Shown here one piece after another: positions 14,067 to 59,734 of a stretch of 64,000 nt of DNA. The first letter of the stretch is position 1, and the number at the start of each line of letters is the position of its first letter. Both the position numbers and the translations under genes were made by a program. The notes below the pieces were generated by a model, which was not told the origin of the DNA, searched no databases, and saw only the letters and a list, made by a program, of their open reading frames with translations. The stretch comes from an uncultured Thermotogaceae bacterium (GTDB lineage Bacteria; Thermotogota; Thermotogae; MWEM01). The DNA lies in NCBI GenBank assembly GCA_964604305.1, contig CAZRYM010000002.1, positions 15,639 to 79,638 on the forward strand, given 5' to 3'.

Positions 14067-14141
14067 TGGTTAAAGTTTTTTAAAGAATGAGGAATATGAT
14101 AAAATCAAACCATGATCCTGATTCCTTTGGAGGAGTTCAAA

Positions 14142-25616: not shown

Positions 25617-26526
25617 GTCCAATTCACTGACTTTAGGAATATTTGATGGTGTTCATATTGGACACAGGCGGCTTATTGAGAAAACAAAAGAAGTTAAAGA
25701 AACAAGCGGAAAGACGATATTGCTGACGTTTGCATATCCATCAACATACTATCTTCATAAAGAGAGTTTCCCGGGACTCATATATTCCCCGCGTAAGAGG
25801 GAGGAGATCATCAAATCATTGGGTATGGATTCTGTTGTTTTTCTTGACTTTAAGCAGTTTTATACAAAAACTCCCCTTGAATTTGTCAGGTATATCACCG
25901 AGCAATTTTCTCCTTCAGAGTTGACTGTTGGGTTTAACTTTCATTTTGGGAAAAATAGGATTGGTGACTCAGAGCTTCTATTAGATTTGGGGCATCGCTT
26001 TGGTTTTCGAACGAATATTGTACCTGCTGTTAACGCCTCTGGTCACAGAGTAAGCAGCTCATTAATTCGATATTTTTTAAAAAATGGAGATATTAAACGG
26101 GCTAATGAAATATTAAAATGTCCTTATTCAATAGAGGGAAAGGTTTTTCAGGATCAGGGACTGGGGAAAAAATTAGGATTTCCTACAGCTAATCTAAAGA
26201 GAGAAGGAAAAGGTTTGCTGACTCCGTGTTATGGTGTATATCTGGGTTATACACCTGGACTGGGTTTTGGTTTATTGAACATAGGCAAAAGACCAACAGT
26301 CAGCCAGGATGATTTGATCCATTATGAAGTACACTATTTAAAGGGCCATTATCAGTTATATGGAACGAAAATTGTCTGTTATCTTCTTGACTTCATTCGT
26401 CAAGAAAAAAAGTTTTTGTCTGTTGATGAGCTGGTTCAAGAGATAAAAAAAGACAGAAAGAAGGCATATCAGAAAATAGAGAGTTTAACAATTGAAGATG
26501 GTTGGTGGAAAAATGAAATTAAATAA
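25609..26526 (+). CDS. ribF: Bifunctional riboflavin kinase / FMN adenylyltransferase
   Basis: LGIFDGVHIGHRRLI FAD-synthetase N-terminus; C-terminal riboflavin kinase domain GFPTANL. Confidence 0.85.
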   Translation: MIKSNSLTLGIFDGVHIGHRRLIEKTKEVKETSGKTILLTFAYPSTYYLHKESFPGLIYSPRKREEIIKSLGMDSVVFLDFKQFYTKTPLEFVRYITEQFSPSELTVGFNFHFGKNRIGDSELLLDLGHRFGFRTNIVPAVNASGHRVSSSLIRYFLKNGDIKRANEILKCPYSIEGKVFQDQGLGKKLGFPTANLKREGKGLLTPCYGVYLGYTPGLGFGLLNIGKRPTVSQDDLIHYEVHYLKGHYQLYGTKIVCYLLDFIRQEKKFLSVDELVQEIKKDRKKAYQKIESLTIEDGWWKNEIK

Positions 26527-28126
26527 ATGGAGTATAATCTTTCTTCTGGTTTTAATTGTGTCTGTGTTCCTTTCTTGGGAATTCTTTATCACTAGCAGGA
26601 TGAATTTGGATGTTTCATTCATCTTTCCCGATGGCATATCGGATGATGTGGAGTTCGAAATGAGAATCTATTCTGAGGAATTTGACAACAAGACGGCGGT
26701 CTTTCCACATGATAAAGAGATTAATTATTCAAGTATGCCATTTGGGGATTATTTCTTTGAACTCTATTTGGACGATCGTTTAATCATCAAAGAATTTCAC
26801 AATTTTCAATCTCAATTTTCAATAAAACGAGCTAAAGAACAAGTTGCTCTGGATATCAGTGAATTGGCCACGATTACTTCAGTTAACTATAAGATTGTCG
26901 ACCCCTATTTAACTATCAAATGGACCGGAAAATACCTTGGTGCTTATAAACCTGCTGAGTATCTTGTTTACCTAAATAATAACGAAAGACTCTTAAGTGT
27001 AAATTATTTAGAATTAGATGTTTTGAAGGAACTGCTTGAGGGTGAGCAAGCGGTAGATATTAGAATAATCCCCCTTACACAGTCAGGTGGAAAATTATTG
27101 AGTTTTGAATATCAGGTGCCAATCAGAATGGAGAGTGTTAGGCTGGATATTCCCGAAGGTTTTAACATCTATGATATGAGTATAAATATCCAGGAAAAGC
27201 GCATTCCAATTGACCCTTATGATTCGCGTATTAGTTTTCCTGTCATCGATTTAAGTGAGAATAGCATACCCTTCGAAATCTATTACTATGAAGATAGAAT
27301 ATGGAAATCAGAATTAGATCTGTCTGAAGTTGTTGAAACTATCAAGATACCGGATATTCCACAAGCTACAGTAACGGAGGTAGACTTGGATGAATCAACC
27401 GTCACAGTGCATTTGAACATCGATCGGGAAAAAGAGTTCTTGTACAATCGGTTTAAATATTTTGAAATTAGTTCCGACACAATTAATACAACTGCTACAG
27501 AATATTTTACCTACAATAATGATAATCAGAATATTTACATCACGCCCCTCTTTGAACCTGATATCCAAGGAGAAACCCTTCTTTTTACAATTCCTCAACC
27601 ACCAATTCCGCATTTGCATACGTATATGTTCGATGAGAACTTGGATTTTGCACCTTCAATTAAGATTTATTCCGATAGTTTTCTAAAACTAACCGGAAAC
27701 TTGCAGATAGATAATACTCTAGTTCACAATATACCTGAATTCAAAGGAGAATATCTCTTTGAATTGGATTTCGAAAAAGATGAGGTTCATTTGATAGAGA
27801 TAAGCCTTGAGGATATTTACGGACAAACTGCTCAAAAGGCAAAATGGATTTCAACCTCAGTTCCGGAGACCTCTTTTTTTATTAAAGCCGAGCTCAACAA
27901 AAACCAGATCCTAGATATCAAATGGGACAGTTTAACGATTTATCAGGAAACCGAACTGATTATTACTGACAATTATAATATTAAGAGATTTTATCCGGAA
28001 GAGTCCGGCTTACAAATTGATCTTTCAGGTACCTTGTTACGTGAACCTCTGAGAGTAATATTAAAGGGTTTTTTAAACGGTGATGAGTATACAGCAGCTG
28101 TCATTGAAGGGATAAGAAGCGAGTAA
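26513..28126 (+). CDS. Hypothetical membrane-anchored extracytoplasmic protein
   Basis: N-terminal TM span WSIIFLLVLIVSVFL, then about 500 aa of beta-rich sequence with no recognised motifs; co-directional with, and overlapping, the ribF end. Confidence 0.55.
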   Translation: MKLNKWSIIFLLVLIVSVFLSWEFFITSRMNLDVSFIFPDGISDDVEFEMRIYSEEFDNKTAVFPHDKEINYSSMPFGDYFFELYLDDRLIIKEFHNFQSQFSIKRAKEQVALDISELATITSVNYKIVDPYLTIKWTGKYLGAYKPAEYLVYLNNNERLLSVNYLELDVLKELLEGEQAVDIRIIPLTQSGGKLLSFEYQVPIRMESVRLDIPEGFNIYDMSINIQEKRIPIDPYDSRISFPVIDLSENSIPFEIYYYEDRIWKSELDLSEVVETIKIPDIPQATVTEVDLDESTVTVHLNIDREKEFLYNRFKYFEISSDTINTTATEYFTYNNDNQNIYITPLFEPDIQGETLLFTIPQPPIPHLHTYMFDENLDFAPSIKIYSDSFLKLTGNLQIDNTLVHNIPEFKGEYLFELDFEKDEVHLIEISLEDIYGQTAQKAKWISTSVPETSFFIKAELNKNQILDIKWDSLTIYQETELIITDNYNIKRFYPEESGLQIDLSGTLLREPLRVILKGFLNGDEYTAAVIEGIRSE

Positions 28127-28167: not shown

Positions 28168-29433
28168 TTAATCTATCTTGAATTCCCTGGTTGGATGGTT
28201 TGTGTAATTGATGACACGACCTTCCCAAGTCCTGATTGTAATGTATTCTTTCCCCCTTGAAATAAGGTATTCTGGCAGGATAGGTGTTTTACCATAACCG
28301 CCGGGCGCATTTATGATATATGTGGGGATTGCCAGACCTGAAGTGTAACCCCGCAGGTATTCCATGATTTCCAATCCGTCATCAACTGATGTATTAAAGT
28401 GCGTTGTGCCCTTCACATGTTTGGCATGAAAAATGTAATAAGGTCGCACCCGTACTTTCAATAGCTCTTGATTGAGTAATTTCATAACGTGTTTATCGTT
28501 ATTGATACCATTCAACAATACAGCCTGATTACCAAGTGGTATTCCTGCGTTTGCCAATTTTTCGCAAGCTTCTTTGGCTTCGATTGTAATCTCTTTTGGA
28601 TGATTGACATGTGTGTTGATAAAAAGCGGATGGTATTTTTTTAACATGCTAACAAGCTCATCTGTGATTCTTTGCGGCATGGTTACCGGAGTCCTGGAAC
28701 CTATTCTGATAATTTCCACATGTTCGATCTTTCGCAATTTTGACAGAATGTTTTCCAGGTAGTTGTCAGTCATAGTCAAAGGATCGCCACCGGTGATTAA
28801 TACATCCCTTATCTCTTCATTTTGTGCTATATAATCTATGGATTCATCGATTACGGATATCGGTTGCGGTTCATCTTCCTCTCCAATATTCCGTCTTCTC
28901 TGGCAATGGCGGCAAAACATGGCACATTCATTAGTAACATTAATGATCAATCTGTCGGGATATCGCCTGGTAACTGTTCCGGCCGGATTGGTAAGTTGTT
29001 CGTTCATGGGGTCTAATTTCCCTTCTTTGTCTACGTCTTCAAAGATCGTTGGTATAGCTTGTAATCTGATCGGACAATAAGGATTTGTTTTGTCCATGAG
29101 ACTGGCATAGTAAGGGGAAATTGCCCAGCGGTATCTTTCTCCGATTTTTTCAATGTCTTTTCTGTGCTTATCTGTTAAATCTACTACTTGTGAAAGAGTT
29201 GATACATCAGAGATTCGATTGGCCAGTTGCCAATGATAATCACGCCACTGTTCTAAAGTGCAATTTAATGCAAGCATGATTCGTTCACGATTTCTTTTAA
29301 ATTCCTCTGTGAGATCCATACCTTTTTTGATATGTTTTTTAGCCTCTATGAAGTCCGAAATTCGACTTTTCAGCTCTTGCGCCCTGTCCAAAGAAACACT
29401 TTTCTTTTTATCGTAGTTAGTATTTTTTTCCAT
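28168..29433 (-). CDS. kamA: Lysine 2,3-aminomutase (radical SAM, KamA family)
   Basis: CAMFCRHCQRRR CxxxCxxC radical-SAM motif; KamA-type N-terminal region; start at 29433 after GGGAGGTGG. Confidence 0.8.
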   Translation of the reverse strand: MEKNTNYDKKKSVSLDRAQELKSRISDFIEAKKHIKKGMDLTEEFKRNRERIMLALNCTLEQWRDYHWQLANRISDVSTLSQVVDLTDKHRKDIEKIGERYRWAISPYYASLMDKTNPYCPIRLQAIPTIFEDVDKEGKLDPMNEQLTNPAGTVTRRYPDRLIINVTNECAMFCRHCQRRRNIGEEDEPQPISVIDESIDYIAQNEEIRDVLITGGDPLTMTDNYLENILSKLRKIEHVEIIRIGSRTPVTMPQRITDELVSMLKKYHPLFINTHVNHPKEITIEAKEACEKLANAGIPLGNQAVLLNGINNDKHVMKLLNQELLKVRVRPYYIFHAKHVKGTTHFNTSVDDGLEIMEYLRGYTSGLAIPTYIINAPGGYGKTPILPEYLISRGKEYITIRTWEGRVINYTNHPTREFKID

Positions 29434-29696
29434 ATCAATCACTTGACCACCTCCCAAGGAGTCTGGAAAAACGAGAATATATTGACTATAAACCATTATA
29501 AATAATAAGATTTGCATAGTTTCAGCATAAAAACCAGAAAAGCAATTGTAGTTTACCTCAAAAGATTATAGCTTATTAAAAATGATATGTCAAATCACAA
29601 GGATTTGTTTTTTCTTGTCTTTAGAATTTCTTGTTGTTGGTTTGATTTGATATAATAGATCAGTTTGAAAGATATTAAAAGACGAGGTGAACGGCG

Positions 29697-32000
29697 TTGA
29701 CTATTGGTAAAAAATTGATGCTAGGGTTTGGTTTAATAATTGTGTTGTTGTTGATTGTGATGCTAATTTCTTTCATTTCCAGCCAAAGCATTAAAGACGA
29801 GGGTGAAAGTATTGTGATTCAGGCAAAAGATGCCAGATCTGAATACAAACAATTTACTAACATAGATACTTTTGAATCGGATTTAAAGGATATGCTCCAA
29901 TATGTATTGAGACTGGGTTATGTAACAAATACAGATGAACAGGAAATGATGTTCGAAGAATATAAAAAGATGTTTTCTGCTGTAGAAGAACTGTCGAAGA
30001 CTAATGGATTTTTTTCACTTTTAGAATTAGAATTAACCAAATTGAATGATAGTGTTGAAAAGATCTTCACGCAAAAGGCGTTAGAATTGGATGCCCTTTC
30101 ACAGCTTTCTGCTGACAAAGTAACAGCAGAGGACATCAGAACACAATTGGAATTTTTGTATAAAGAAAAGGAAGAACTGCTAAAGAGGGATGACATGAAG
30201 ATCGTCCGTATCATTCAAACTTTACAAATGATGAAACAGGATTATATTTCCTTAAGACAGCCTGATGAAAAGAAAGAGAATGAAATAAAAGAACGACTTT
30301 TAGAATCAGGTTTAGATGGGTTAACTTTCATTGAGATGGAAGTTTTATGGGACAATGAAGTTTTGGGAGGGCCGCCAATCACTGGATTTCCTATGCTTAT
30401 TCTCTGTGCAAGAGAATTGATGGCAACCGATGGTAAATATCCGGATTTCTTATCAGAGTTGAAACAGGCGAAAGAAGATATTCTGGATTATATAAAATTA
30501 AAAACTCAATTTGGTTATACTACATATGATGCTGTGGCATCCATTTTTGTTCCGTTATCTGTTGAGTTATATGAAAAAAAACTGAAAAAACTGCAGGAGT
30601 CGTTGTTAAAAATAAGCCGTATGGAAGTCAATTTACAAGCAAAGGAAAATATGGTCGGCTACCATAATGAAACTGCTGAGCAAGCCCGAAAAGACTCGCT
30701 AAATACCATTAAAAATGAACTTTCAACAGTATTGAATGATTTGCAGGTACGACTTGAAGCACTTATTTCTGAAAGCGCCACTAGTTTTAATGAAAATCTC
30801 AATCAAGTGGAAGAAAAAAGTGAAGAAAGCGTTACTCTGATAAACAACATGAATTCGTTTATTTTGATCGTGTTGATCACATCCGTTTTGATCAGCATCA
30901 TCATTGCCTACTTTATCTATTCAAGTATCAAAAAACCTATTGTCAACATCCTGAAAAAAACCGAAAAAATCAAAAACCTTGACTTTACTGTTGAATTTGA
31001 AGAAACAAAGAAAAAAGATGAAATGGGACAATTGGAAACTGCGTTGAAAGAGATTGTATGGGCTGTTAAAGAAACCTTGCAGAATGTAAAAAAGGCAATA
31101 GAAGATGTGAAGGAATCCACCGACAAACTGGAACAGGTAGCCGGTGAATCCGAAAACATCTCAAAGGAGCTTAAATCACAGGCAGACAGGACGGAAAACG
31201 ATGTACAAGACACGTCAGCGGCGATTGAAGAGGTAAGTTCGGGAGTAGAGGAAGTGGCGGCATCGGCGAAGAACATCACAGACGTATCGTCAGATCTGTA
31301 CGAAAGGACACAGGAAACGTCCAAATCGGCAAAAAGCGGACAGAAAGAACTGACAAAAGTGGCAGACATTGTCAAGGAAGCGGAAGAGCAGGCAAAGGCA
31401 ACGTCCAGAGTAGTAGAGGAGTTGCAAGCAAATGCGAAGAACGTGGGAGAAATCGTCAAGACGATATCGGGAATCTCAGAACAGACGAACCTGTTGGCGT
31501 TAAATGCTGCGATAGAGGCAGCGCGTGCTGGAGAAGCAGGTAAAGGCTTTGCGGTAGTAGCGGATGAGATCAGGAAATTGGCGGAAGAGAGTCAGAAATC
31601 GACGGAAGACATTGCAAAGATGCTCAAAGAGATTGGAAATGGAGTGGGCGAAGTCAACGATGCTTCGGATAAGACGGTGGAGATTGTAAACAAGATGGAA
31701 GAAAACTCCAGAGAGGCCCTTGAACAATTTGAAAACATACTTGAACGACTGAGCGGGGTAACGGAGTCCGTCCACAATCTCAACAGTACATCAGAGGAAC
31801 AAAGTGCGGCAGCGCAAGAGATAGCGGATGCAATGGATCAATCAGCCCGATCCATGGTTAATGCTTCCGAACAGGTTGAGAATATGGTTCGTGATGTTGA
31901 ACAACAAGTTGATTCAATATCAAAAATGAATGAGATATCACAAACAATGAGGCGTTTAGCAGATGATTTAAGATTGGATATCAGCAAATTTAAATCATAA
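29697..32000 (+). CDS. Methyl-accepting chemotaxis protein 1 (N-terminal TM span, large extracytoplasmic sensor, second TM, HAMP, MCP signalling domain)
   Basis: TM1 [22 protein letters not shown]2 [20 protein letters not shown], then HAMP; highly conserved MCP signalling domain ...[39 protein letters not shown]. Confidence 0.85.
31119..31891 (+). repeat. Copy A of a 773-bp block 100% identical to 33599-34371 (MCP signalling domain), GC-rich relative to its flanks
   Basis: Base-by-base identity with an offset of 2480 bp; mismatches immediately outside both ends. Confidence 0.95.
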
Positions 32001-32176: not shown

Positions 32177-34480
32177 ATGAAAATTTCTACCAAGTTATTA
32201 ATGGGATTTACAGTTATTATTATCATTCTTGTTGTAGTTTTATTGGTATCCACCATATCTAACAGAGAAGTTGTTTTGCAAGCAGATACTGTTCTTGAGC
32301 AAACAGATGCTTCTGAGAAAGAGCTTCTTGAATTTAGAAGGTATAATCAGTTGGAAAGTGGTATCAAAGATATGATACAGACTGTATTGAATTTGGGATA
32401 TGTGGCAACGATAGAAGAAGAGAATTTGATTAAAGAACAATACCAAAAAAATGTAGAAAGTTTGAAGGAGATCATATCAAGCTATGAAAGTGCTGAGACT
32501 TACTTACAAACTATTTCTCAGATAGACGAATATGTCAAAGATGTATTCAACTATAAAGAAATAGAGATTCTTTCTCAAAAGGAATTAGAAGAGAATCAGG
32601 AAAAGCAAAAGCAATTCATGGTAAAAAAGACTTCTTTTACTGAAAAGATTCAGAAGATGCAGAAAGTAGATATGCAAAAAGTTGAAAAAACCATGGAATC
32701 GTTTAAACTTATAAAAGACGAGCATGCAGAAATGAAAAAGCCAACCGATGAGCAAAAGCAGATGTTGAATGAAGAGTTGATCAGTAAAACAGATGTCGAA
32801 GAGTTGGGAATGTATGAAATAGAGGAGATTTGGAAACCGGAATTACTTGATATAACCATAAAGGAGTTTTCTGATCTTGAATTCGTAACACGAAATATTA
32901 TCATCAATCCGGAAGATTCGGAGGAATTGCTTCCCAAGGCAGTTGAAATTGCCGAAAAGATAAACAGCAATGTGGGTTTTCAGGTGATGTTTGGTTCAGC
33001 TGTGTATGATCCTGTCTCTGCACAACTGATATCTTTAACCTTGGATAAGTATATTGAGCAGCTGAAAGAAATGGTAAAAATAATCAATGAGAGAGAAGAA
33101 AATGAAAAAGCCATGATCGTAGTACAGGAAGTAATAGAAAATGCAAATCAAAGGGTAGATGAAAGCAGAACTTTGGCTTTTAATATTATCAATACCAATA
33201 TTAAGACTAGCAGTCGGGAGCTGTCATCCATTATCGAGGAAAAAGCCGAAAACCAATATGGAAGTTTGAAACAAAGTTTTGAATCTATCAAAAAGAATAA
33301 CACAACCAGTAAAGAAACAATAGAGAAAAACAATTTCCAAATATTATTGCTGATATCAATCACCATTGTGATTAGTCTGATTGTAGCGGTAGTTATTATC
33401 AGAAGCATTAAAAAGCCAATTAAACGTTTACTTGAGAAATCAACTTTACTTCAAAATCTGGATATGACGGTGGATTTTGAAGCAGATAGCGGTAAAGACG
33501 AAATAGGACAAATCGAACACGCACTGGCACGGGTCGTAGAGGTCATAAAAGATACATTAACCGATTTCAGAAATGCAGTTCAGAACGTTAGAATGGCAAC
33601 CGACAAACTGGAACAGGTAGCCGGTGAATCCGAAAACATCTCAAAGGAGCTTAAATCACAGGCAGACAGGACGGAAAACGATGTACAAGACACGTCAGCG
33701 GCGATTGAAGAGGTAAGTTCGGGAGTAGAGGAAGTGGCGGCATCGGCGAAGAACATCACAGACGTATCGTCAGATCTGTACGAAAGGACACAGGAAACGT
33801 CCAAATCGGCAAAAAGCGGACAGAAAGAACTGACAAAAGTGGCAGACATTGTCAAGGAAGCGGAAGAGCAGGCAAAGGCAACGTCCAGAGTAGTAGAGGA
33901 GTTGCAAGCAAATGCGAAGAACGTGGGAGAAATCGTCAAGACGATATCGGGAATCTCAGAACAGACGAACCTGTTGGCGTTAAATGCTGCGATAGAGGCA
34001 GCGCGTGCTGGAGAAGCAGGTAAAGGCTTTGCGGTAGTAGCGGATGAGATCAGGAAATTGGCGGAAGAGAGTCAGAAATCGACGGAAGACATTGCAAAGA
34101 TGCTCAAAGAGATTGGAAATGGAGTGGGCGAAGTCAACGATGCTTCGGATAAGACGGTGGAGATTGTAAACAAGATGGAAGAAAACTCCAGAGAGGCCCT
34201 TGAACAATTTGAAAACATACTTGAACGACTGAGCGGGGTAACGGAGTCCGTCCACAATCTCAACAGTACATCAGAGGAACAAAGTGCGGCAGCGCAAGAG
34301 ATAGCGGATGCAATGGATCAATCAGCCCGATCCATGGTTAATGCTTCCGAACAGGTTGAGAATATGGTTCGACAGCTTGAAAATCAATCAGCTTCGGTAA
34401 AAGATTTATCTCAGACTTCAAGCGAGTTGACAGTTCTAAACAAAGAACTTGAAGAGGATATCAACAAATTTAAATTATAG
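32177..34480 (+). CDS. Methyl-accepting chemotaxis protein 2; tandem paralog with a divergent sensor domain and an identical signalling domain
   Basis: Same architecture and length (767 aa) as MCP1; N-terminal 470 aa unrelated at sequence level; C-terminal 257 aa identical. Confidence 0.85.
33599..34371 (+). repeat. Copy B of the 773-bp identical block
   Basis: See copy A. Confidence 0.95.
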
Positions 34481-41230: not shown

Positions 41231-41256
41231 ACAACTGCTTAATGTAAAACATAAAG

Positions 41257-41293
41257 CCGGTTATTGAGAAGAAATCTAATAACCGGTTTTTTT
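41257..41293 (+). terminator. Terminator between convergent operons (CCGGTTATT-12 nt-AATAACCGG + U7)
   Basis: Perfect 9-bp stem, then TTTTTTT. Confidence 0.6.
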
Positions 41294-42440
41294 ATTCCTC
41301 TAAAGGAGTACATTTTCCGTAAATCGGTAATGATTTTACCGGTTGTGTCAATTCAAAGGTTCCTGCTTCAATTTGCTTTTTTAATATTTCAGTTATTTTA
41401 TATGCGTCACGAATCTTGGACATGGTCCTTGAAACCGGCTTCTTGCCTGATAATTGTATGTTGTTGTTGTGCAATTGATCATATGTTACCGTTCCAATCG
41501 TTTCTCCTGTTGCAAAATCGTGTACTTGCGTAATAATATCTTTATTTCTTATCGAAAGTGCATGGGCTATATCGGAGTTTAGGACCGGGATTGGGATACC
41601 GATTGAGATGTAAAGGCTCACACCGTACCCTTTGATATATAAGGGGGCGATAAACTCAGGTTTCACTTGTCGGAGATCGGCTGAGATGGCTAAAGTAGCT
41701 GAAGGAGCAATGGGTAAATGAGTTTTCTCGTCCCTCTTTGCATAAGCATTATACTGAGTGCCTTCCCAGCTGATAAATCCTTCTCCACCACAAAAAAAGA
41801 TTCGGGTTCCAATACCGATTGTTTGTAAATAGGGATCGTTCATCAAAGGAGATATGTCTCCGGCTCCTGCAAAATTAACACTGCCCACGTTTGGTAAAAG
41901 GCTGCCCATGTATGTTTTAAGTTCTATCTCTGATGAATTGCAAGCTGCATTGTAATTTTGGTAACAATTTCTGGGATTGAAAAAATACACTTGGTTTAAA
42001 TCATCAATTGTAATTTCCTTTGAAAAATGACTTTTTGGATAACAATCTGTAGAGGTTCCATCTGCTTTAAAAGAGATAGACTTGCCTTTAACCAGTTTAT
42101 CTATCACATGTGCACCACCATAAGTGCTATTGGAAACGCTTTCCTGAGTAGCACCCAGATAAAAGTCAGCACAAGCGATGCCACCATAAGCTTGAACATC
42201 ATCCAAAAAGACTTCTTGCATTTTCATATGAGGATTAGTGTGACCCGTGTTAATAAAAACACCTGATGAACACATGGGACTGTAGGTTGCTGTTGTGACA
42301 ACGTCGCATTTTTCTGCCAAACTCTTTGTCCCTTCTTCTTCAGCCAATTCCTTGGCTTGTGAAGCAGTGAGAATTAACGCCTTATTTTCTTTTATTTTTT
42401 TGTTGATTTCATCTATGCTTTTCATTAAAAAACTCCTCAT
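41292..42440 (-). CDS. COG1900/DUF39-like protein (methanogen-type homocysteine-biosynthesis, L-aspartate-semialdehyde sulfurtransferase-like family); tentative
   Basis: 382 aa; the N-terminus KSIDEINKKIKENKALILTASQAKEL resembles, from memory, the characteristic start of PF01837 proteins; 32-bp overlap with the upstream aspartokinase gene. Confidence 0.4.
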   Translation of the reverse strand: MRSFLMKSIDEINKKIKENKALILTASQAKELAEEEGTKSLAEKCDVVTTATYSPMCSSGVFINTGHTNPHMKMQEVFLDDVQAYGGIACADFYLGATQESVSNSTYGGAHVIDKLVKGKSISFKADGTSTDCYPKSHFSKEITIDDLNQVYFFNPRNCYQNYNAACNSSEIELKTYMGSLLPNVGSVNFAGAGDISPLMNDPYLQTIGIGTRIFFCGGEGFISWEGTQYNAYAKRDEKTHLPIAPSATLAISADLRQVKPEFIAPLYIKGYGVSLYISIGIPIPVLNSDIAHALSIRNKDIITQVHDFATGETIGTVTYDQLHNNNIQLSGKKPVSRTMSKIRDAYKITEILKKQIEAGTFELTQPVKSLPIYGKCTPLEE

Positions 42441-43785
42441 GAATGGATTTTATAGCATCATTTCTTTGTTGGGCATCTACAATAAAATAGCTTGCAACAT
42501 CTGATACTCCCATTGAAACAACCTTTGCATTTATCCCTTTACGAGATATGGCATTGAACAACTTTGCAGCAATTCCGTGGGTATCGTTCAACCCTTCACC
42601 AACTATCGCAATTAGAGAGATATCATCTTTTATCTCCACTTCGTTGACACCATGGACATCAAGATGCTGCAATAACTTGTAAGCCTTATAGAGATCGGAA
42701 GAGGAAAGTAGAATTGAAATAATGGTTTGAGAAGTTAGCACGGACTTGATGTTGATACCTTCTAATTTCATAGCATTTGTCACATCTGCCAGTATCCCGG
42801 GTTTAACTCCTACTCCAGGACCTTTTAGCTTTAGGATCCCAATATCATCTGTGTATGAACAACTTTTTACGATATAGCTGGTTTTGACTGATTTAGAAGA
42901 AATTATTGTTAAGGGTTTGATATGATCCAAATCACCATCTATATTGAAAAGGTTGAGGGGGATATTGTCCGGTTTTAAAGGTTCAAAAGCCCTTGGATGA
43001 ATGATTTCAGCTCCGAAATAGGATAGTTCTGCAGCCTCAAGATAAGTCATTCTTTTTATGTTCCTGGCGTTGGGAACGATTTTTGGATCTGCACTTAAAA
43101 AACCTTTCACATCTTTCCAAAGATCGATTGACTGAGCTTTAACACACCTGGCGATAGCAGCAGCTGAATAATCACTGCCTCCCCTGCCGAAAAGATTAAC
43201 TTTGCCCGATTCTGAAATTCCATAAAAACCGGGAACAATATAGATCAGGTTTTCTTTAAAAAAGGAAGCAACTTTGCATGAACACCTGTCAAAATCAACA
43301 CTGGCATTTCCAAACTCCCCATCTGTGAGTAACCCGATATCTTCAGGCGTGGCTTCTTTGCATATAATGTTCAACTGATTTAAAATTTTATATAGGGTAA
43401 AAGCAGAAAGTCTCTCGCCATAACTAAGAACCGTATCTCTGACGAAATCAGGAGCCTCGCCAATGTAGTGGATCCCTAAAAGAAATCTTTTTAATTCTTC
43501 TATACGTTTTTCCAGTTCAGAAAACGTAGACTGAAGATCTGAAGACTCCAGGAGATAATCCGAAAGGATTTCCTTATGTGCCTTTAAAAGTGTTTGCTGT
43601 AATTGGTCGATAGAATCAAAATTACGATGAACTTTTTCAACTGTGGTTAAAATGGTATCTGTCATACCATAAAGTGCTGAAATCACTATAATCAAAGGTT
43701 TGTCATAACTTCTGATAACTCTTACCAGCTTTGAAATATCTTCTCTTTTTTTTAGGTTGGATCCCCCAAATTTGACTACTTTCAT
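42409..43785 (-). CDS. lysC: Aspartate kinase
   Basis: MKVVKFGGSNL amino-acid-kinase N-terminus; C-terminal ACT domains; 458 aa. Confidence 0.8.
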   Translation of the reverse strand: MKVVKFGGSNLKKREDISKLVRVIRSYDKPLIIVISALYGMTDTILTTVEKVHRNFDSIDQLQQTLLKAHKEILSDYLLESSDLQSTFSELEKRIEELKRFLLGIHYIGEAPDFVRDTVLSYGERLSAFTLYKILNQLNIICKEATPEDIGLLTDGEFGNASVDFDRCSCKVASFFKENLIYIVPGFYGISESGKVNLFGRGGSDYSAAAIARCVKAQSIDLWKDVKGFLSADPKIVPNARNIKRMTYLEAAELSYFGAEIIHPRAFEPLKPDNIPLNLFNIDGDLDHIKPLTIISSKSVKTSYIVKSCSYTDDIGILKLKGPGVGVKPGILADVTNAMKLEGINIKSVLTSQTIISILLSSSDLYKAYKLLQHLDVHGVNEVEIKDDISLIAIVGEGLNDTHGIAAKLFNAISRKGINAKVVSMGVSDVASYFIVDAQQRNDAIKSIHEEFFNEKHR

Positions 43786-43918
43786 CGATTGCCTCCATTG
43801 TCAGATAAAATCTATAGTATCGCTTTCCTTAAATCATACTAACCAGTATCTTCAAATCAATAGTTTCAGCTTTAAATTTTTCAAGAGAAATTATACCATT
43901 TCAATCAACGGATACGTT

Positions 43919-46513
43919 TTACTCAACCCAGATGTATTTTCTCGTGTCTGTTGCCAGGAAAGGTCCGGAATGGGGTATAAAATCCAATATGGCTGCCGGC
44001 GGTAATCTCCCCGGTGCATATAATTTTACTTTTCCCTTTATTGACCCTTTCATATCACTTCCCACCAGGGTTATGGAATGGGAGTACATAGAATCTTTAT
44101 CGGATTGCTTCTGGGTATCCGGTAGAATAAACAATGAAGTATCCGGATACTTTTGATTAAAGATTTGTTCAATGTCCTTTATGGGGTGTCTTTCATATTG
44201 TAGAGTCGGTATGCCATAGAAGGTTTTTCCTTTGTCTTTTGCTTCTTTTTGAACCAAATAAATAGCCTCTTGGAAGGTTTGATAATCAGTGTTTAGAAGA
44301 TCTGAAATGGAAATATCTACAGCTGTTTCAAGCTCTTCTTTAAGCCATTGAGTTTGAAGCGCATACCAGGTTTGCAGATATTTCTGCGTATTTGGCCAAA
44401 AATCCAAAACATTTTTCTCTTTAGTCAAAGTGTTTAAAACCAGTTCAACATCAGATTCAATTCCGGCTGTGATTGCTACTAAAGACAGAATACCCGCTCT
44501 GATACTACCTATACCGGTTATTTCTGTTAAAAGAGAATAATAAGGATGGATTCCATATGAAAGAGAACGCATGATTCGTTGATATTCATTCTCTCCCAAA
44601 TCCGGCCAAAATCCTCTACCAGCACCCTGTCGGATGAAACTCAGCACCAATTGCATATCATTTGCAAGTGAAGATGTCCAGGCAGGAGGTCTTTGTCTCA
44701 TTGCTGTGGCAATATTGTCTTTATAACCCAGCCCTATTCTCATAGCAACAGTTCCCAAACCATATTGCATAATACCGGTATCCGGGAAATTACCGGAAAC
44801 TGTGGCGACATTCCACATTCCCGGAAAGATTGGCAAATAGGGCGGATAATGCGATGGTATGGTACCCGTTGTGGGAATTAAGACTGCTGTTGCTTCAAAT
44901 CTACTCCAAAAAGATGCCTGATCCGGTTCGCCATCATGAGTTTTTGGAATAACACTGAAAAATTGAGAGACCTTTTCAGGATTGAGCATATAAGAGGCAG
45001 TTAGCATTCCCAGGTTGGTAATGTTGTCTTCGTCAAGCATTTTTATTTCCCTTAATCGTTCATACGCCTTTTTTAACACTTTTTTCTTGTCTGAACTTTT
45101 ATAATGTGTATCCAATATTCTTACCGGATCTACTGACATGATTCCCAAGGCGGCCAATTCTATATCTCCAAGTTCTCGAGTAATGGATGCGTTGAAGTTT
45201 CTGGAATAACCTTGTGATACGACACCGAAGGATCTGTCAAGTGCGGTTTCCAGGTGTTCGTCCAGTCCTCGTTTGAGCTTTTCTTCTAAAAGTTCCTGAG
45301 TCCTGCTACCGCGACTACCTGTTGAATACATTACTCTTCCATATCCTCTGACTGTATGTCCCTTTCTGCCGGCCCTTCCTTCAAACTGAAGGATATCGAG
45401 AAAGGTAGGCCAAAGATTGTCTTCGTTGTAAGGAGAATATTTCACAAAAATAAGTATGTCGTCAGTTGGAGAATTAAAACCATAGGCAAGAGTCTGAGTA
45501 GAAACCAGTACTGTGAGAGGGTTTGAGGAATCCTTAAAACATTTCTCTATTTCGTGACGTTCATCAATTGGGATATCAGCATTGTGAAAAGCTGCAATTG
45601 CATTCTTGTCATAAGAGCGTTTGATGTATGGAACAGCATTGTTTAGAACTGGAATTCCCAATTCCTCAAAGCCTTCAAGCAGGTACCAACCACTTTTTTT
45701 TGAAGGAATGATGATCATGGTCTTTATGCCGTTCTTGATATTGTCTTCCAGAATTTGTGTATAAATCTGTTTTGCAATTTTTTTCCTGTTTTTTCTGGAA
45801 GGTGCCGAAATCTTAACAAATGATCGCTGTAAGGGTAAAGGTCTCCAATCACTTTCTATCAATAATGCAGCATCAATCCATTTTGCCATTTCCAATGCAT
45901 CAGGCATTGTTGCAGAGAGCAGGAAAAGAGTCTTTTTATCACCTATGGAATGAACAACACACTCTTCATAGACAATACCACGGGAATTTTGAACAAGCAT
46001 ATGTGCCTCGTCTATGATTACAAGCTCAGCTGCCTGCGTCCAAGATGAATTTGAGTGGCGTGAAGCAAGATAGGCTTCAGGAGTGGCGACGACAATATCA
46101 AAATTTTCCTTCACATCCATCTTGTTTTCACCTGTACGAAGATAGATTCGGAACTTCGTCTCTTTCAAATCCTGGTAGACCTGCCTTGCCAATGCCCTTG
46201 TGGGAGAAAGGTAAATCGTTCTTTTTACCTTTTGCCCTTCTTTCAGGTGTTTTTGCATGGCCATAAAAGCAACAACTGTTTTTCCGGATCCTGTAGGGGT
46301 AGCTATAACAGCATTCCCTCCATTGTAGTAATGGTGAAATGCCTGTTGAATAGGGTTAAACTCAAAAGGAGCAAGTTCTCCTAAAACTGTTTTACCATCC
46401 TCAGATTTTATAAGAGCGTCTTTTCCATTTATCATTACCAGATAATCCTGTCCATTTTGTTGCTCTTTACTGTTTTTATCCGAATTTTTCGCAATATAAA
46501 TACTATCCATCAT
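43919..46513 (-). CDS. Superfamily-2 DEAD/DEAH-box helicase (Ski2/Hel308-like core) with a divergent C-terminal extension of about 400 aa
   Basis: Motif I ATPTGSGKT; motif II IIDEAHM; SAT; QFEGRAGRKG motif VI; 864 aa. Confidence 0.75.
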   Translation of the reverse strand: MMDSIYIAKNSDKNSKEQQNGQDYLVMINGKDALIKSEDGKTVLGELAPFEFNPIQQAFHHYYNGGNAVIATPTGSGKTVVAFMAMQKHLKEGQKVKRTIYLSPTRALARQVYQDLKETKFRIYLRTGENKMDVKENFDIVVATPEAYLASRHSNSSWTQAAELVIIDEAHMLVQNSRGIVYEECVVHSIGDKKTLFLLSATMPDALEMAKWIDAALLIESDWRPLPLQRSFVKISAPSRKNRKKIAKQIYTQILEDNIKNGIKTMIIIPSKKSGWYLLEGFEELGIPVLNNAVPYIKRSYDKNAIAAFHNADIPIDERHEIEKCFKDSSNPLTVLVSTQTLAYGFNSPTDDILIFVKYSPYNEDNLWPTFLDILQFEGRAGRKGHTVRGYGRVMYSTGSRGSRTQELLEEKLKRGLDEHLETALDRSFGVVSQGYSRNFNASITRELGDIELAALGIMSVDPVRILDTHYKSSDKKKVLKKAYERLREIKMLDEDNITNLGMLTASYMLNPEKVSQFFSVIPKTHDGEPDQASFWSRFEATAVLIPTTGTIPSHYPPYLPIFPGMWNVATVSGNFPDTGIMQYGLGTVAMRIGLGYKDNIATAMRQRPPAWTSSLANDMQLVLSFIRQGAGRGFWPDLGENEYQRIMRSLSYGIHPYYSLLTEITGIGSIRAGILSLVAITAGIESDVELVLNTLTKEKNVLDFWPNTQKYLQTWYALQTQWLKEELETAVDISISDLLNTDYQTFQEAIYLVQKEAKDKGKTFYGIPTLQYERHPIKDIEQIFNQKYPDTSLFILPDTQKQSDKDSMYSHSITLVGSDMKGSIKGKVKLYAPGRLPPAAILDFIPHSGPFLATDTRKYIWVE

Positions 46514-56918: not shown

Positions 56919-57446
56919 GTGAATCACGAATCGGAGGTGTTGCTGTTGTCAACAGGTGAATCAAAAGTTGCTTGTGCAGAACATGAAAAGCTGTACGAAA
57001 AACTTGACGTGTTTATTGAAGAAGTAAAAGATAAACCCGGCGTACTGATCGAGGTACTACATAAGGCGCAAGAGATGTTCGGGTATCTTCCTGTAGAAGT
57101 ACAGAGCCATGTAGCTCAGAAATTAAATCTACCGGAAAGTCAGGTATATGGTGTCGTTACTTTTTACAATTTCTTCACCATGAAGCCCAGGGGAAAGAAT
57201 CAAATCAAGATCTGTCTTGGTACGGCTTGCTATGTAAAAGGCGCTGATAAAGTTCTTGACAGATTTAAAGAAGAACTAAAAGTTGAAATGGATGAAGTAA
57301 CAGAAGATGGTAACTTTTCTCTGCATGGTGTAAGATGCCTGGGGGCATGTTCTATGGCACCGGTAGTGTTAATTGGAGAAAAGGATTTTTATGGAAAAGT
57401 AACAGCGAACGAAATACCAAAGATATTAAAGAAATACAAGGGGTGA
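56919..57446 (+). CDS. NuoE/HndA-like [2Fe-2S] thioredoxin-like ferredoxin subunit (copy 1)
   Basis: KICLGTACYVKG...RCLGACSMAP four-Cys pattern of NuoE 24-kDa family; the start may be the internal TTG about 56943 after GGAGGTG. Confidence 0.8.
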   Translation: MNHESEVLLLSTGESKVACAEHEKLYEKLDVFIEEVKDKPGVLIEVLHKAQEMFGYLPVEVQSHVAQKLNLPESQVYGVVTFYNFFTMKPRGKNQIKICLGTACYVKGADKVLDRFKEELKVEMDEVTEDGNFSLHGVRCLGACSMAPVVLIGEKDFYGKVTANEIPKILKKYKG

Positions 57447-57830
57447 ATGAAGATGGCAAAGATTAAAAGTTTGGATGAGTTGATGAAAATAAAAGAAAAG
57501 GCCGTTAAGGATATCCAGATGAGAGATACAGAGAAGAAAGGGAAAATCGTAGTTGCAATGGGAACTTGTGGAATTGCTGCCGGTGCGAAGGAAACATTGC
57601 AGGCGGTTGTTAACGAATTGGAAAAAAATGGCATCGATGATGTATCCGTCGTTCAATCCGGTTGTATGGGATTATGTGATGTGGAACCCACAGTTGAGGT
57701 AGTCATGGAAGGCAGTGATCCCATCATCTATGGTCATGTTTCACCTGAGCAGGTAGCAAGAATAATTGACCAGCATGTAAAGAATGGAAAAGTTGTCAGT
57801 GATTTGTTAGTTAGAAAGGGCGAAATCTGA
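57447..57830 (+). CDS. HndB-like small thioredoxin-fold [2Fe-2S] ferredoxin
   Basis: VVAMGTCGIAAG...SGCMGLCDVEP; 127 aa. Confidence 0.65.
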   Translation: MKMAKIKSLDELMKIKEKAVKDIQMRDTEKKGKIVVAMGTCGIAAGAKETLQAVVNELEKNGIDDVSVVQSGCMGLCDVEPTVEVVMEGSDPIIYGHVSPEQVARIIDQHVKNGKVVSDLLVRKGEI

Positions 57831-57859
57831 TCAGATAAAAGATTGCGAGGTGAGTAGAG

Positions 57860-59659
57860 TTGCCGGTTGCAACTAATACGATATTAATGTGCGCTGGCGG
57901 AGGATGTATTTCCTCCGGAGAAGAAAGTTGTTTACAAGCACTGCAAAAAGCAGTTGAGAAGTATTCGCTCCACGATGTGGTTAAGGTTGTTGAAACAGGG
58001 TGCATGGGAATGTGTGATGCGGGTCCTTTGATGGTTATCTACCCTGAAGGGGTATATTATCAAAAATTAACACCTGAGGATGTCGAAAAAATCATTTCCG
58101 AACACATTTTGAAGGGTAGAATTGTTGAGGATAAGTTGCTGGACAATCCCGTTTCGAGCTTAAAAACGCATAATCCTTATGATGATCATCCCTTCTTCAC
58201 AAGACAGGTAAAGATTGCCACCAGAAATATGGGGATTGTAGACCCGATGAAAATAGAAGAGTATATTGCCCACGATGGTTATTTTGCACTTCAGAAAGCC
58301 TTGTCCATGAAACCCGAAGAGATCATAGCAGAACTTAAAGAAAGCGGTCTTAGAGGTAGAGGTGGGGCCGGTTTTCCCACATGGTTAAAATGGGAACTGA
58401 CGAGAAAGGTTCCCGGTGATGAAAAATACGTGTTGTGCAATGCTGATGAAGGAGATCCTGGTGCGTTTATGGATCGATCCATACTGGAAGGGGATCCTCA
58501 TTCTTTGCTGGAGGCAATGGTCATAGCCGGTTATGCCATTGGAGCAAACAAAGGATATATCTATATCAGAGCCGAATATCCCCTTGCCATTGAGAGGTTA
58601 AATGAAGGAATCAAACAGGCAAAAGAACTGGGGTTGTTTGGCGAAAACATCATGGGATCAAATTTCTCTTTTGATGTTGAGATCAGAATGGGTGCCGGTG
58701 CATTTGTATGTGGTGAAGAAACTGCTTTAATTGAGTCAATAGAAGGAAAACGGGGACAGCCAAGGGTTAAGCCGCCCTTCCCCGCTCAAGTTGGAGTATG
58801 GGGTAAGCCAACCCTTAATAACAACGTAGAAACTTACGCAAACATTCCGCCAATATTGACAAAGGGAGCCAAATGGTTTTCCAGTATCGGAACTGAAACA
58901 AGCAAGGGAACAAAGGTTTTTTGCCTTGCGGGAAAAGTTAAGAATACCGGTTTAGTTGAAGTTCCAATGGGAATTACATTAAGAGAAGTTGTGTATGATA
59001 TCGGAGGCGGTATTCCAGACGGTAAAGCTTTTAAAGCTGTTCAAACCGGGGGTCCCAGCGGTGGATGTATTCCGAAAGAACACCTGGATACTCCAATCGA
59101 CTATGAAACGTTGAAAGAACTGGGAACTATGATGGGATCCGGCGGTATGATATTTATGGATGAGGATACATGTATGGTGGATGTGGCAAAGTATTTCCTT
59201 GATTTTTCTGTTGAAGAATCTTGCGGAAAATGTCTACCCTGTCGCGAAGGCAATAGAGTCATGCTTGATATGCTGGAGAAAATAACCAGTGGCGAAGGTG
59301 AAGAAGGGGACATTGAAAAACTTGAAGTATTAGGTAAAAATATTATGGACACATCTCTTTGCGGTCTTGGACAATCATCTCCCCAACCCGTCATATCAAC
59401 AATCAGATACTTTAGAGATGAATACGAAGCCCATATAAAAGAGAAAAGATGTCCTGCTAAAGTTTGCAAGCCTTTGATAAGATACCTAATTGATCCGGAA
59501 AAATGTGTTGGGTGTACGGCCTGTGCAAGAGTTTGTCCAGTGTCTGCCATAAGCGGAGAGGTAAAAAAGGTTCATGAAATAGATAGCGAGATTTGCACCA
59601 GATGTGGCAGCTGTATACAAGTTTGCCGATTTGGAGCGATAAGCATTGTTTCACCGTAA
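57860..59659 (+). CDS. NuoF/HndC-like NAD(P)H-binding flavoprotein subunit (copy 1, complete)
   Basis: N-terminal CAGGGC...GCMGMC thioredoxin-like 2Fe-2S; GRGGAGFPTWLKW FMN/NADH site; ESCGKCLPCREG N3 cluster; C-terminal 2x CxxCxxCxxxCP. Confidence 0.85.
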   Translation: MPVATNTILMCAGGGCISSGEESCLQALQKAVEKYSLHDVVKVVETGCMGMCDAGPLMVIYPEGVYYQKLTPEDVEKIISEHILKGRIVEDKLLDNPVSSLKTHNPYDDHPFFTRQVKIATRNMGIVDPMKIEEYIAHDGYFALQKALSMKPEEIIAELKESGLRGRGGAGFPTWLKWELTRKVPGDEKYVLCNADEGDPGAFMDRSILEGDPHSLLEAMVIAGYAIGANKGYIYIRAEYPLAIERLNEGIKQAKELGLFGENIMGSNFSFDVEIRMGAGAFVCGEETALIESIEGKRGQPRVKPPFPAQVGVWGKPTLNNNVETYANIPPILTKGAKWFSSIGTETSKGTKVFCLAGKVKNTGLVEVPMGITLREVVYDIGGGIPDGKAFKAVQTGGPSGGCIPKEHLDTPIDYETLKELGTMMGSGGMIFMDEDTCMVDVAKYFLDFSVEESCGKCLPCREGNRVMLDMLEKITSGEGEEGDIEKLEVLGKNIMDTSLCGLGQSSPQPVISTIRYFRDEYEAHIKEKRCPAKVCKPLIRYLIDPEKCVGCTACARVCPVSAISGEVKKVHEIDSEICTRCGSCIQVCRFGAISIVSP

Positions 59660-59734
59660 GAACAATAATCAGGCTGATTCTTTCTTGTTGGATCAGCCTT
59701 TTGGTTTTTACACCGTAATCAATTAACAGGGGGT

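Follow-up and report, generated by a model that had tools for sequence, protein, structure and literature searches.

Several described systems built on DUF39/COG1900a proteins lie close to the locus studied here. In M. acetivorans (MA1821/MA1822) and M. jannaschii (MJ0100), a COG1900a protein is combined with a NIL/ferredoxin protein (EC 2.8.1.16), and COG1900a proteins are marked by two near-universal cysteines, the essential Cys54 and Cys131 in MA1821 numbering (PMC12068725). In Desulfovibrio, DUF39 proteins (Dde_3007, DVU2938, DvMF_1464) belong to a genetically proven homocysteine route in which homoserine is not an intermediate (PMC4045070, PMC5764234), and the DUF39 gene and those of its NIL/ferredoxin (DvMF_0262) and COG2122 (DvMF_0044) partners are all unlinked (PMC5764234). 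COG2122 is essential for the DUF39 pathway in D. vulgaris and is needed by M. acetivorans at low sulfide only (PMC5764234). Ferredoxin-fused DUF39 operons occur in the Thermotogota, namely in Thermosipho africanus (THA_1098, from the literature), Pseudothermotoga thermarum (L009), Fervidobacterium (L012) and Mesoaciditogaceae (L047). A distant member of the COG1900 superfamily, the coenzyme M synthase MMP16/ComF (COG1900d), carries out an analogous aldehyde-to-thiol conversion. The DUF39 route to homocysteine is already represented in MetaCyc, GapMind and NCBI annotation. The original prediction for our locus had called the route methanogen-type, a label that does not fit a pathway established genetically in bacteria between 2014 and 2018 (PMC4045070, PMC5764234), and it had treated COG2122 and the NIL/ferredoxin protein as a single partner, when these are two different proteins (PMC5764234).

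We analyzed a 64-kb stretch of DNA from an uncultured Thermotogota lineage (hereafter, the window), in which two ORFs on the minus strand, at 42409-43785 and 41292-42440, encode an aspartokinase (ask) and a DUF39 protein (hcyBio). The features of this pair, listed from the upstream end, are as follows.

43890..43905, minus strand: putative extended -10 promoter ATTGAAATGgTATAAT, with TG at 43898-43897 and TATAAT at 43895-43890, from consensus and conservation
43792..43796, minus strand: Shine-Dalgarno sequence GGAGG of ask, from sequence reading, kept in 4 of 5 aligned relatives
42409..43785, minus strand: ask, aspartate kinase of 458 aa with an AA_kinase domain and two ACT domains
42433..42438, minus strand: Shine-Dalgarno sequence GAGGAG of hcyBio, inside the last ask codons (…HEEFF…)
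41292..42425, minus strand: hcyBio, predicted DUF39/COG1900a L-aspartate-semialdehyde sulfurtransferase catalytic subunit of 377 aa, from PF01837; CBS and ferredoxin domains absent
41246..41286, minus strand: intrinsic-terminator-like hairpin CCGGTTATT…AATAACCGG followed by CTTTATGTTTT, from RNA folding

The ask product matched PF00696 (141.8 bits) together with ACT_9 and ACT_7, and it passed the NCBIfam model TIGR00657 for aspartate kinases (318 bits, cutoff 208.7), in agreement with its earlier description as a 458-residue aspartate kinase with ACT domains. Among solved structures it is nearest to M. jannaschii aspartokinase (3C1M/2HMF, E = 1e-68); residues 3-455 of Ask are collinear with 3C1M, and the N-terminal KFGG and GRGGSDYSAA motifs are aligned between the two.

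The start of hcyBio required correction. A 382-residue product overlapping ask by 32 bp had been predicted, and this longest ORF does exist, but four observations place the start further downstream. Homologues are 376-377 aa long with the N-terminus MK(S/T)I; the public annotation of an identical contig begins the gene at the second ATG; the upstream ATG at 42440 is replaced in most relatives (CAC, or CAT changed to a non-ATG codon); and relatives keep the GAGGAG (42438-42433), the spacer of 7 nt and the ATG at 42425, with GAGGAG or AAGGAG found 7 nt ahead of the hcyBio ATG in L002, L091, L092, L093, L006 and L007. We therefore assign hcyBio a start at ATG 42425, a length of 377 aa and an overlap with ask of 17 nt (42409-42425). 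As the hcyBio Shine-Dalgarno sequence lies within ask and the two genes overlap, this arrangement suggests coupled, stoichiometric translation of Ask and HcyBio. Two small antisense ORFs on the plus strand (41264-41533 and 43757-44005), which lie within or overlap the two real genes, were rejected as spurious.

Membership of the hcyBio product in the COG1900/DUF39 family, which had been read from its N-terminus alone, was borne out by a match to Pfam PF01837 (HcyBio) at 407.3 bits (cutoff 26.2, E = 6e-122) that runs end to end through the profile (residues 21-364 of the 382-aa ORF, profile positions 1-349 of 349). Alignments of 14, 44 and 47 sequences, the largest of which takes in archaeal CBS-bearing homologues, have just two invariant cysteines, C52 (MCSSG) and C128 (DCYP). 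Judged by motif, invariance and spacing (76 versus 77 residues), these match Cys54 and Cys131 of COG1900a; Cys131, the counterpart of C128, is presumably a persulfide carrier. [quoted passage not shown] Strong purifying selection acts on the two genes (dN/dS 0.04-0.08), with values of 0.037 for ask against L091 and 0.076 for hcyBio against L002.

The window HcyBio therefore shares with MA1821 and MJ0100 a full-length Pfam family match and two conserved cysteines, and presumably also the reaction of aspartate semialdehyde, sulfide and two electrons to give homocysteine. It is ~46-48% identical to the archaeal CBS-bearing homologues L019 and L073. Unlike MA1821 and MJ0100, however, it does not have the C-terminal SAM-sensing CBS pair (it has no CBS match and ends at residue 377, where the archaeal L019 protein bears two CBS domains), and its gene is probably joined in expression to an aspartokinase gene instead of adjoining a NIL/ferredoxin gene. 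The CBS pair is not defining for bacterial members, as Dde_3007 also lacks it (PMC4045070). The Desulfovibrio proteins are likewise bacterial and CBS-less with partner genes that do not adjoin, but an aspartokinase coupling goes unmentioned for them in the literature compared, whereas the window hcyBio overlaps ask.

Signals at both ends of the pair point to a transcription unit of its own. The ATTGAAATGgTATAAT block, which sits just 3' of the helicase stop codon, is the sole conserved part of the 133-nt spacer between the helicase gene and ask (in the window, L002, L091 and L092, and partly in L093), and its consensus and conservation make it a candidate promoter. At the other end, the terminator-like hairpin folds at -17.9 kcal/mol (z = -2.9 versus shuffles) in the 61-nt gap before a convergent ABC permease gene. 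A generic scan for promoters and terminators returned counts at chance level and missed this hairpin because its stem is A/T-rich and its loop is long; the candidate promoter was instead called by conservation and the putative terminator by RNA folding. A riboswitch or other leader RNA in front of ask was considered and rejected: known regulatory RNAs in Rfam, the SAM riboswitch among them, gave no match at the gathering threshold in the window and none with E <= 1 in the ask leader, and the UTR shows little conservation within the clade.

The pairing itself is conserved well beyond the window. The ask-hcyBio overlap was found again in relatives as far as 46% identity, with 4-26 nt of overlap at 11 of 11 annotated junctions. 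The identities of Ask and HcyBio to their counterparts vary together (80/72, 70/66, 53/60 and 45/55), indicating that the pair is inherited as a unit. The nearest HcyBio relatives, L007, L010 and L093-L097 (53-72% identity), share with the window the HcyBio subclade, the Ask class, the overlapping junction and the lack of a NIL/ferredoxin gene in cis; they differ in that COG2122 follows the pair directly and asd often precedes it, where the window subclade has ask-hcyBio only. Among the ferredoxin-fused operons of the same phylum, L009 and L047 have the ask-hcyBio overlap, ask lies directly upstream of hcyBio in Fervidobacterium L012 (27-nt gap by ORF call), and the aspartokinases are of the same class of ~450-460 aa. 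The DUF39 proteins of L009, L012 and L047 end in a 2x[4Fe-4S] domain and their genes are followed by COG2122 and metF, none of which the window locus has; nor does it have the asd found in the L009 operon or the metH found in L009 and L047.

Gene orders in relatives place the pair in a methionine context. We observed asd-ask-hcyBio-COG2122 in L007, L094 and L095, metH-ask-hcyBio(Fd)-COG2122-metF-asd in L009, and SAM riboswitch-ask-hcyBio-COG2122-metF-metH in L008 and L044; a SAM-I riboswitch stands ahead of hcyBio in 6 of 10 loci sampled. The asd, COG2122, metF and metH genes and the SAM riboswitches of these relatives identify ask-hcyBio as a biosynthetic aspartate-to-homocysteine module, and they support the link to the aspartate semialdehyde and sulfide route that had been drawn at the outset. 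For the pair in the window a place in the methionine regulon is suggested indirectly, through these relatives, as its own leader has no such riboswitch.

Our main reading, to which we assign a probability of roughly 0.85, is that promoter, ask, hcyBio and terminator form a self-contained bicistronic biosynthetic unit through which aspartate is channelled towards homocysteine. Ask (EC 2.7.2.4) would convert aspartate to aspartyl-4-phosphate, which an Asd encoded elsewhere would reduce to aspartate semialdehyde. The DUF39/COG1900a protein (EC 2.8.1.16) would then replace the aldehyde oxygen by sulfur and reduce the product to the thiol, yielding homocysteine without homoserine or O-acyl-homoserine intermediates. 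The formation of homocysteine from aspartate semialdehyde and sulfide by the window HcyBio is a predicted activity, in which Cys52 and Cys128 probably carry the chemistry and electrons would come from a ferredoxin. Asd, a ferredoxin and possibly COG2122 would be supplied in trans, and a MetH or MetE encoded elsewhere would complete methionine. Points that weigh against this reading are the lack of asd, NIL/ferredoxin and COG2122 genes in the window, the loss of COG2122 (required in D. vulgaris) from the locus, the leader free of known regulatory RNAs, and the ability of COG1900 enzymes to use other aldehydes such as sulfoacetaldehyde (PMC12068725).

The pathway itself is not new, the window pair is an ordinary instance of it, and knowledge of the pathway is unchanged. 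The value of the locus lies mainly in annotation, as the evidence from the window supports the view that this Thermotogota lineage encodes a homoserine-independent, sulfide-dependent route to homocysteine. Methionine auxotrophy of such metagenome-assembled genomes should therefore not be called from missing metA, metX or metY alone. The repeated joining of aspartokinase to a DUF39 gene by overlapping frames, in some lineages under a SAM riboswitch, implies a methionine-dedicated aspartokinase isozyme and is separate genomic evidence that the substrate is aspartate semialdehyde.

The one unusual point of the window locus is that the customary helper genes are apparently missing. A NIL/2x[4Fe-4S] ferredoxin partner is fused to or adjoins hcyBio in 48 of 76 surveyed loci, and a COG2122/UPF0280/PF27030 (ApbE-like) gene lies at most 3 genes downstream in 59 of the 76. 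As had been noted, asd, COG2122 and the NIL/ferredoxin gene are not in the window: domain searches of its 64 kb found none of them, no NIL domain, and a Fer4 domain only within a NuoF-like protein (57860-59659). All members of the window clade (73-100% identity) have the bare two-gene unit, and neither the window nor any clade contig examined has COG2122 at the locus. Its sister lineage L093 (72%) keeps COG2122 at the same site, from which the gene has evidently been lost in the window clade.

We also searched for a COG2122 gene that had moved elsewhere, for which a clade orthologue would be expected at 50-80% identity, and among the matches listed there was none in that range. No relatives 50-99% identical to the L093 COG2122 turned up among 5.8 billion protein clusters. 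In a metagenome scan, the best among the matches listed was 41% identical to the L093 copy, and none of those listed came from metagenomes with the 92% relative of the window. The next-best candidates examined, P0163 and P0166, belong to other lineages, and P0246 (PF27030, on a 7,467-bp NCBI contig) belongs to another assembly, with the context dnaE-AbpE-HIT. Another contig of 7,467 bp carries a 90%-cluster mate of the window HcyBio, and this agreement in length is a coincidence. C154, which lies in the motif NPRN[C/A]YQNY of the window clade, was considered as a substitute for ferredoxin; we dropped this idea because cysteine at the motif is uncorrelated with the absence of ferredoxin (absent in 9 of 19 loci with C versus 17 of 51 with A).

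One possible explanation, which we consider doubtful, is that the clade uses a minimal module of Ask and the catalytic subunit, drawing on free sulfide and a housekeeping ferredoxin without COG2122 or a dedicated NIL/ferredoxin protein. If true, this would stand as a natural exception to the need for three genes derived from Desulfovibrio and Methanosarcina, and COG2122 would be a sulfide-scavenging accessory outside the catalytic core. The pair has stayed under strong selection in a clade that lost COG2122 from the locus, and this offers a natural test of the COG2122 requirement.

The same loss could mean that the pair has partly decayed, with an inefficient DUF39 protein left in a minor or different role while methionine is imported or made through canonical metA/metX and metY. 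COG2122 is missing from the locus across the 73-100% clade and present in the 72% sister lineage, cluster and metagenome searches (among the matches listed) yielded no close orthologue, D. vulgaris needs COG2122 for this pathway (PMC5764234), and M. acetivorans has both routes, with L-ASST dispensable there (PMC12068725). Several observations nonetheless make this explanation improbable. Both genes are intact and retain low dN/dS and the invariant family positions, the junction and promoter block are conserved across the clade, and the M. acetivorans requirement is confined to low sulfide (PMC5764234). Moreover, as all partner genes in Desulfovibrio are unlinked, the lack of a gene at this locus is a poor guide to the rest of the genome.

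Less probable still is that HcyBio acts on another aldehyde, as MMP16/ComF does on sulfoacetaldehyde on the way to coenzyme M, and makes a thiol other than homocysteine. COG1900 includes one or more further enzymes that turn aldehydes into thiols, and L-ASST itself may have a loose substrate specificity (PMC12068725). However, the MMP16 model TIGR03287 scored only 140 bits against HcyBio, far under its cutoff of 364, and HcyBio, which gave no Fer4 match, lacks the ferredoxin insert that MMP16/ComF has in its COG1900 domain. The HcyBio cysteines are at COG1900a positions and not those of COG1900d, no coenzyme M biosynthesis genes occur in the 64-kb window, and the aspartokinase neighbour, together with asd, metF, metH and SAM riboswitches in relatives, argues for aspartate semialdehyde as the substrate.

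The least probable reading is a catabolic one in which the module works backwards, with desulfuration of homocysteine to aspartate semialdehyde, oxidation to aspartyl phosphate and formation of ATP by Ask through substrate-level phosphorylation, in a Thermotogota that ferments peptides. In its favor are the general ability of acyl phosphates to drive the synthesis of ATP and the lack, at the window locus, of a SAM riboswitch OFF-switch of the kind typical of biosynthetic operons, but it has no precedent in the literature compared, ACT-domain aspartokinases are the usual feedback-regulated biosynthetic type, and the relatives' operons with SAM riboswitch, metF and metH follow a biosynthetic logic.

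The minus-strand ORF at 41292-42440 covers the whole of the Pfam profile PF01837 (HcyBio, "homocysteine biosynthesis enzyme, sulfur-incorporation") with a score of 407 bits (gathering score 26.2). The resemblance to COG1900/PF01837 that the original prediction had guessed from the N-terminus is thus far beyond chance, and both minus-strand ORFs were found where it had placed them. The 382-aa product and 32-bp overlap with the aspartate kinase gene (ask) that it described are longest-ORF figures. HcyBio homologues are 376-377 aa long with the N-terminus MK(S/T)I, the gene call of an identical public contig begins at the second ATG, and relatives keep the ATG at 42425 and, separated from it by 7 nt, a GAGGAG motif (42438-42433); the ATG at 42440 varies among them. 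We therefore assign hcyBio a 377-aa product starting at 42425 and a 17-nt overlap with ask.

[quoted passage not shown] The window HcyBio scored 140 bits with the MMP16 model, below its cutoff of 364, and NCBI names in its 90% cluster are "L-aspartate semialdehyde sulfurtransferase" or "homocysteine biosynthesis protein". When it is compared with 14, 44 and 47 diverse homologues, among them archaeal proteins with CBS domains, its only invariant cysteines are C52 (MCSSG) and C128 (DCYP), which match the COG1900a signature of Cys54, essential in MA1821, and Cys131 (PMC12068725). Unlike the archaeal enzymes, the window protein has no CBS pair, a feature also missing from the genetically characterised Desulfovibrio DUF39 protein, and a Pfam domain search found no inserted ferredoxin domain in it. 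MA1821 carries a persulfide on a conserved cysteine in vivo, reportedly Cys131. By these sequence features, the window HcyBio is a member of the COG1900a L-ASST. Its AlphaFold model (m25d49c96cebd) is confident (pLDDT 94.3, pTM 0.91), and neither sequence search nor Foldseek (best E = 0.048, TM <= 0.12) found a relative in the PDB. The family has no experimental structure, and the COG1900 fold appears to be without a solved representative.

The surroundings of hcyBio are as follows:
Ending at 43919, minus strand: Hel308-like helicase gene, upstream of ask
43898-43890, minus strand: putative extended -10 element TGgTATAAT, directly after the helicase stop
42409-43785, minus strand: ask, amino-acid-kinase domain with ACT domains C-terminal to it
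41292-42425, minus strand: hcyBio
3' of hcyBio, in the 61-nt gap before a convergent ABC permease gene: terminator-like hairpin CCGGTTATT…AATAACCGG with a T-rich tail

The ACT-domain aspartate kinase of the original prediction was borne out by these domains, by a TIGR00657 (asp_kinases, NCBIfam) score of 318 bits against 208.7, and by end-to-end collinearity with the M. jannaschii aspartokinase structure (3C1M/2HMF), in which the KFGG and GRGGSDYSAA motifs align. The extended -10 is the sole conserved block of the 133-nt helicase-ask spacer; between it and ask lie ~95 nt of UTR with little conservation and then a GGAGG Shine-Dalgarno sequence, and no riboswitch was found in this leader even at E <= 1. 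RNA folding of the hairpin gave -17.9 kcal/mol (z = -2.9). With a putative -10 upstream and a hairpin downstream, the unit is predicted to consist of promoter, ask, hcyBio and terminator. As there is no obvious terminator between helicase and ask, read-through from the helicase gene into ask-hcyBio is possible. The helicase (43919-46513, minus strand) is an 864-aa Hel308/Ski2-like DEAD-box protein in which ~450 residues at the C-terminus match nothing in Pfam, and it lies directly 5' of ask throughout the clade (L002, L091, L092, L093).

Both genes are under strong purifying selection (dN/dS = 0.076 for hcyBio against locus L002 and 0.037 for ask against L091); at greater distances synonymous sites reach saturation, whereas hcyBio pN remains at 0.11-0.22. 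This pattern points to a pair that is functional rather than decaying.

To place the unit among its relatives, we examined 84 loci, of which 79 came from reference genomes (L010-L089 without L049), four from protein matches (L006-L009) and the window itself. The commonest arrangement is hcyBio, a ~135-aa protein that Pfam identifies as NIL plus 2x[4Fe-4S] (NIL/Fd, MA1822 type), and a PF27030/UPF0280 (COG2122, ApbE-like) gene, with metH and metF often coming next. Two or more downstream genes were visible in 76 loci; of these, 48 have ferredoxin adjacent or fused to hcyBio, and 59 have COG2122 at most three genes downstream. An aspartokinase immediately 5' of hcyBio is a minority arrangement (5/79 reference-genome loci), found in all nearest relatives with a retrieved locus (53-72% identity: L006, L007, L010, L093-L097) and in other Thermotogota (L009, L012, L047 and L008, Oceanotoga); in Pseudothermotoga thermarum (L009) the order is metH-ask-hcyBio(Fd fusion)-COG2122-metF-asd. 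The two genes overlap by 4-26 nt at 11/11 annotated junctions, and since their identities to the window co-vary, Ask and HcyBio travel together.

SAM-I riboswitches, at times in tandem, lie 5' of hcyBio in 6 of 10 sampled loci, and in L008 and L044 one heads the entire ask-hcyBio-COG2122-metF-metH operon. The riboswitch positions place the orthologous group and its coupled aspartokinase in the methionine regulon. Several of the relatives' ask-hcyBio operons also contain asd, and together with the riboswitch context this genomic evidence independently supports aspartate semialdehyde as substrate. Tandem SAM-I pairs precede hcyBio-NIL/Fd-COG2122-metF operons in Clostridia-type relatives (L062 7321-7826, L065 2899-3267, L079 7572-7902). 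An uncharacterised ORF recurs between metF and metH (L008 12766-13338, L044 10746-11399), with similar ~190-240-aa ORFs in L042, L047, L062 and L065; the L008 example, the single one scanned, has no Pfam match at E <= 0.001, and judging from position it may be a B12-reactivation partner of a short MetH.

The original prediction's reading of an aspartate semialdehyde-to-homocysteine route is essentially correct, and this interpretation is supported. It is not novel: the pathway is already known in bacteria, noted in Thermotogae and named by the NCBI pipeline. The DUF39 route is listed in MetaCyc and GapMind. D. alaskensis and D. vulgaris depend on DUF39 to make homocysteine, and homoserine is not an intermediate (PMC4045070, PMC5764234), and a ferredoxin-fused precedent exists in Thermotogae (THA_1098; PMC4045070). 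The "COG2122 (NIL/ferredoxin)" partner named earlier merged two separate proteins, which D. vulgaris needs together; M. acetivorans can dispense with COG2122 when sulfide is high (PMC5764234). In the proposed mechanism, Ask would supply aspartyl phosphate, Asd encoded in trans would make the semialdehyde, HcyBio would use C52/C128 to form a thio-intermediate that a ferredoxin would reduce to homocysteine, with the 17-nt overlap coupling translation of the two genes. Family membership, catalytic-residue conservation, gene order, the conserved overlap with its internal Shine-Dalgarno and purifying selection are established directly; the methionine-pathway and SAM-riboswitch context is so established in relatives only.

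As originally predicted, COG2122 and asd are missing from the 64-kb window: tblastn with relatives' seeds found neither of them there, nor metF or metH. The window also contains no classical met genes and no NIL/Fd protein; a profile built from 59 NIL/Fd neighbours matched nothing beyond the Fer4 tail in a NuoF-like protein. The window's clade (HcyBio 73-100% identical: L001-L005, L091, L092) has helicase-ask-hcyBio only, then a convergent ABC operon, whereas in L093, the sister lineage at 72%, the order is helicase-ask-hcyBio-COG2122-MCP. Within the clade, COG2122 was therefore lost or relocated from this very position, and the MCP placement implies that the loss went along with a rearrangement that broke immediately 3' of hcyBio. 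The MCP gene of L093 is directly 3' of COG2122; the window has two tandem MCP genes (29697-32000 and 32177-34480, plus strand) of identical length (767 aa).

In other lineages, HcyBio at 61% and 66% identity accompanies COG2122 at 44% and 49%, so a clade orthologue would be expected at ~55% identity to the L093 copy. No protein among 5.8 billion clusters matched that copy at 50%-99% identity; P0163 and P0166, the next-best proteins of an L006-seeded search for which a locus was retrieved, belong to ask-hcyBio-COG2122 operons of other lineages, and the closest candidate for a relocated copy in metagenomes was 41% identical among the matches listed. Because the clade is well represented (protein P0001 alone occurs on 37 contigs), the apparent absence is meaningful but not conclusive. 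Particular to the window locus are thus the bare ask-hcyBio module, the apparent clade-wide lack of COG2122 and the absence of a riboswitch; that it encodes a naturally COG2122-independent, ferredoxin-subunit-less minimal L-ASST is an unlikely reading of these features.

By exact sequence matching, the window belongs to an uncultured Thermotogota MAG, where it is part of an 84.5-kb NCBI contig. The remainder of the window is ordinary chromosome, with no tRNA genes or Rfam families in the 64 kb. Its genes include ribosomal proteins, trmD, rimM, signal peptidase, PolC, RuvC, a Bmp-type nucleoside ABC transporter, the two methyl-accepting chemotaxis (MCP) genes and NuoE/NuoF-like iron-sulfur flavoproteins. 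The last group (56919-61866, plus strand) comprises two NuoE-like 2Fe-2S proteins, a weaker small 2Fe-2S-like protein and two paralogous NuoF-like flavoproteins, with no hydrogenase catalytic subunit visible in the window. In one NuoF-like protein (57860-59659, plus strand) the C-terminus carries a 2x[4Fe-4S] tail; no other ferredoxin-type domain occurs in the 64 kb, and this one could conceivably provide low-potential electrons.

Three plus-strand ORFs have no Pfam match at E <= 1e-4 (26492-28126, 544 aa; 11793-12287, 164 aa; 12318-12689, 123 aa). A lysine-2,3-aminomutase-like radical SAM protein (LAM_C + Radical_SAM; 28168-29517, minus strand) is aspartate/lysine-family-related and unlinked to the ask-hcyBio unit. 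At 5508-9064 (minus strand) lies a hydantoinase/oxoprolinase A and B subunit pair; a HAD hydrolase and a lactate/malate dehydrogenase come after it on the same strand. The ORF at 14112-15365 (plus strand) encodes an unusual 417-aa fusion of a MerR-type HTH and a class I SAM-dependent methyltransferase.
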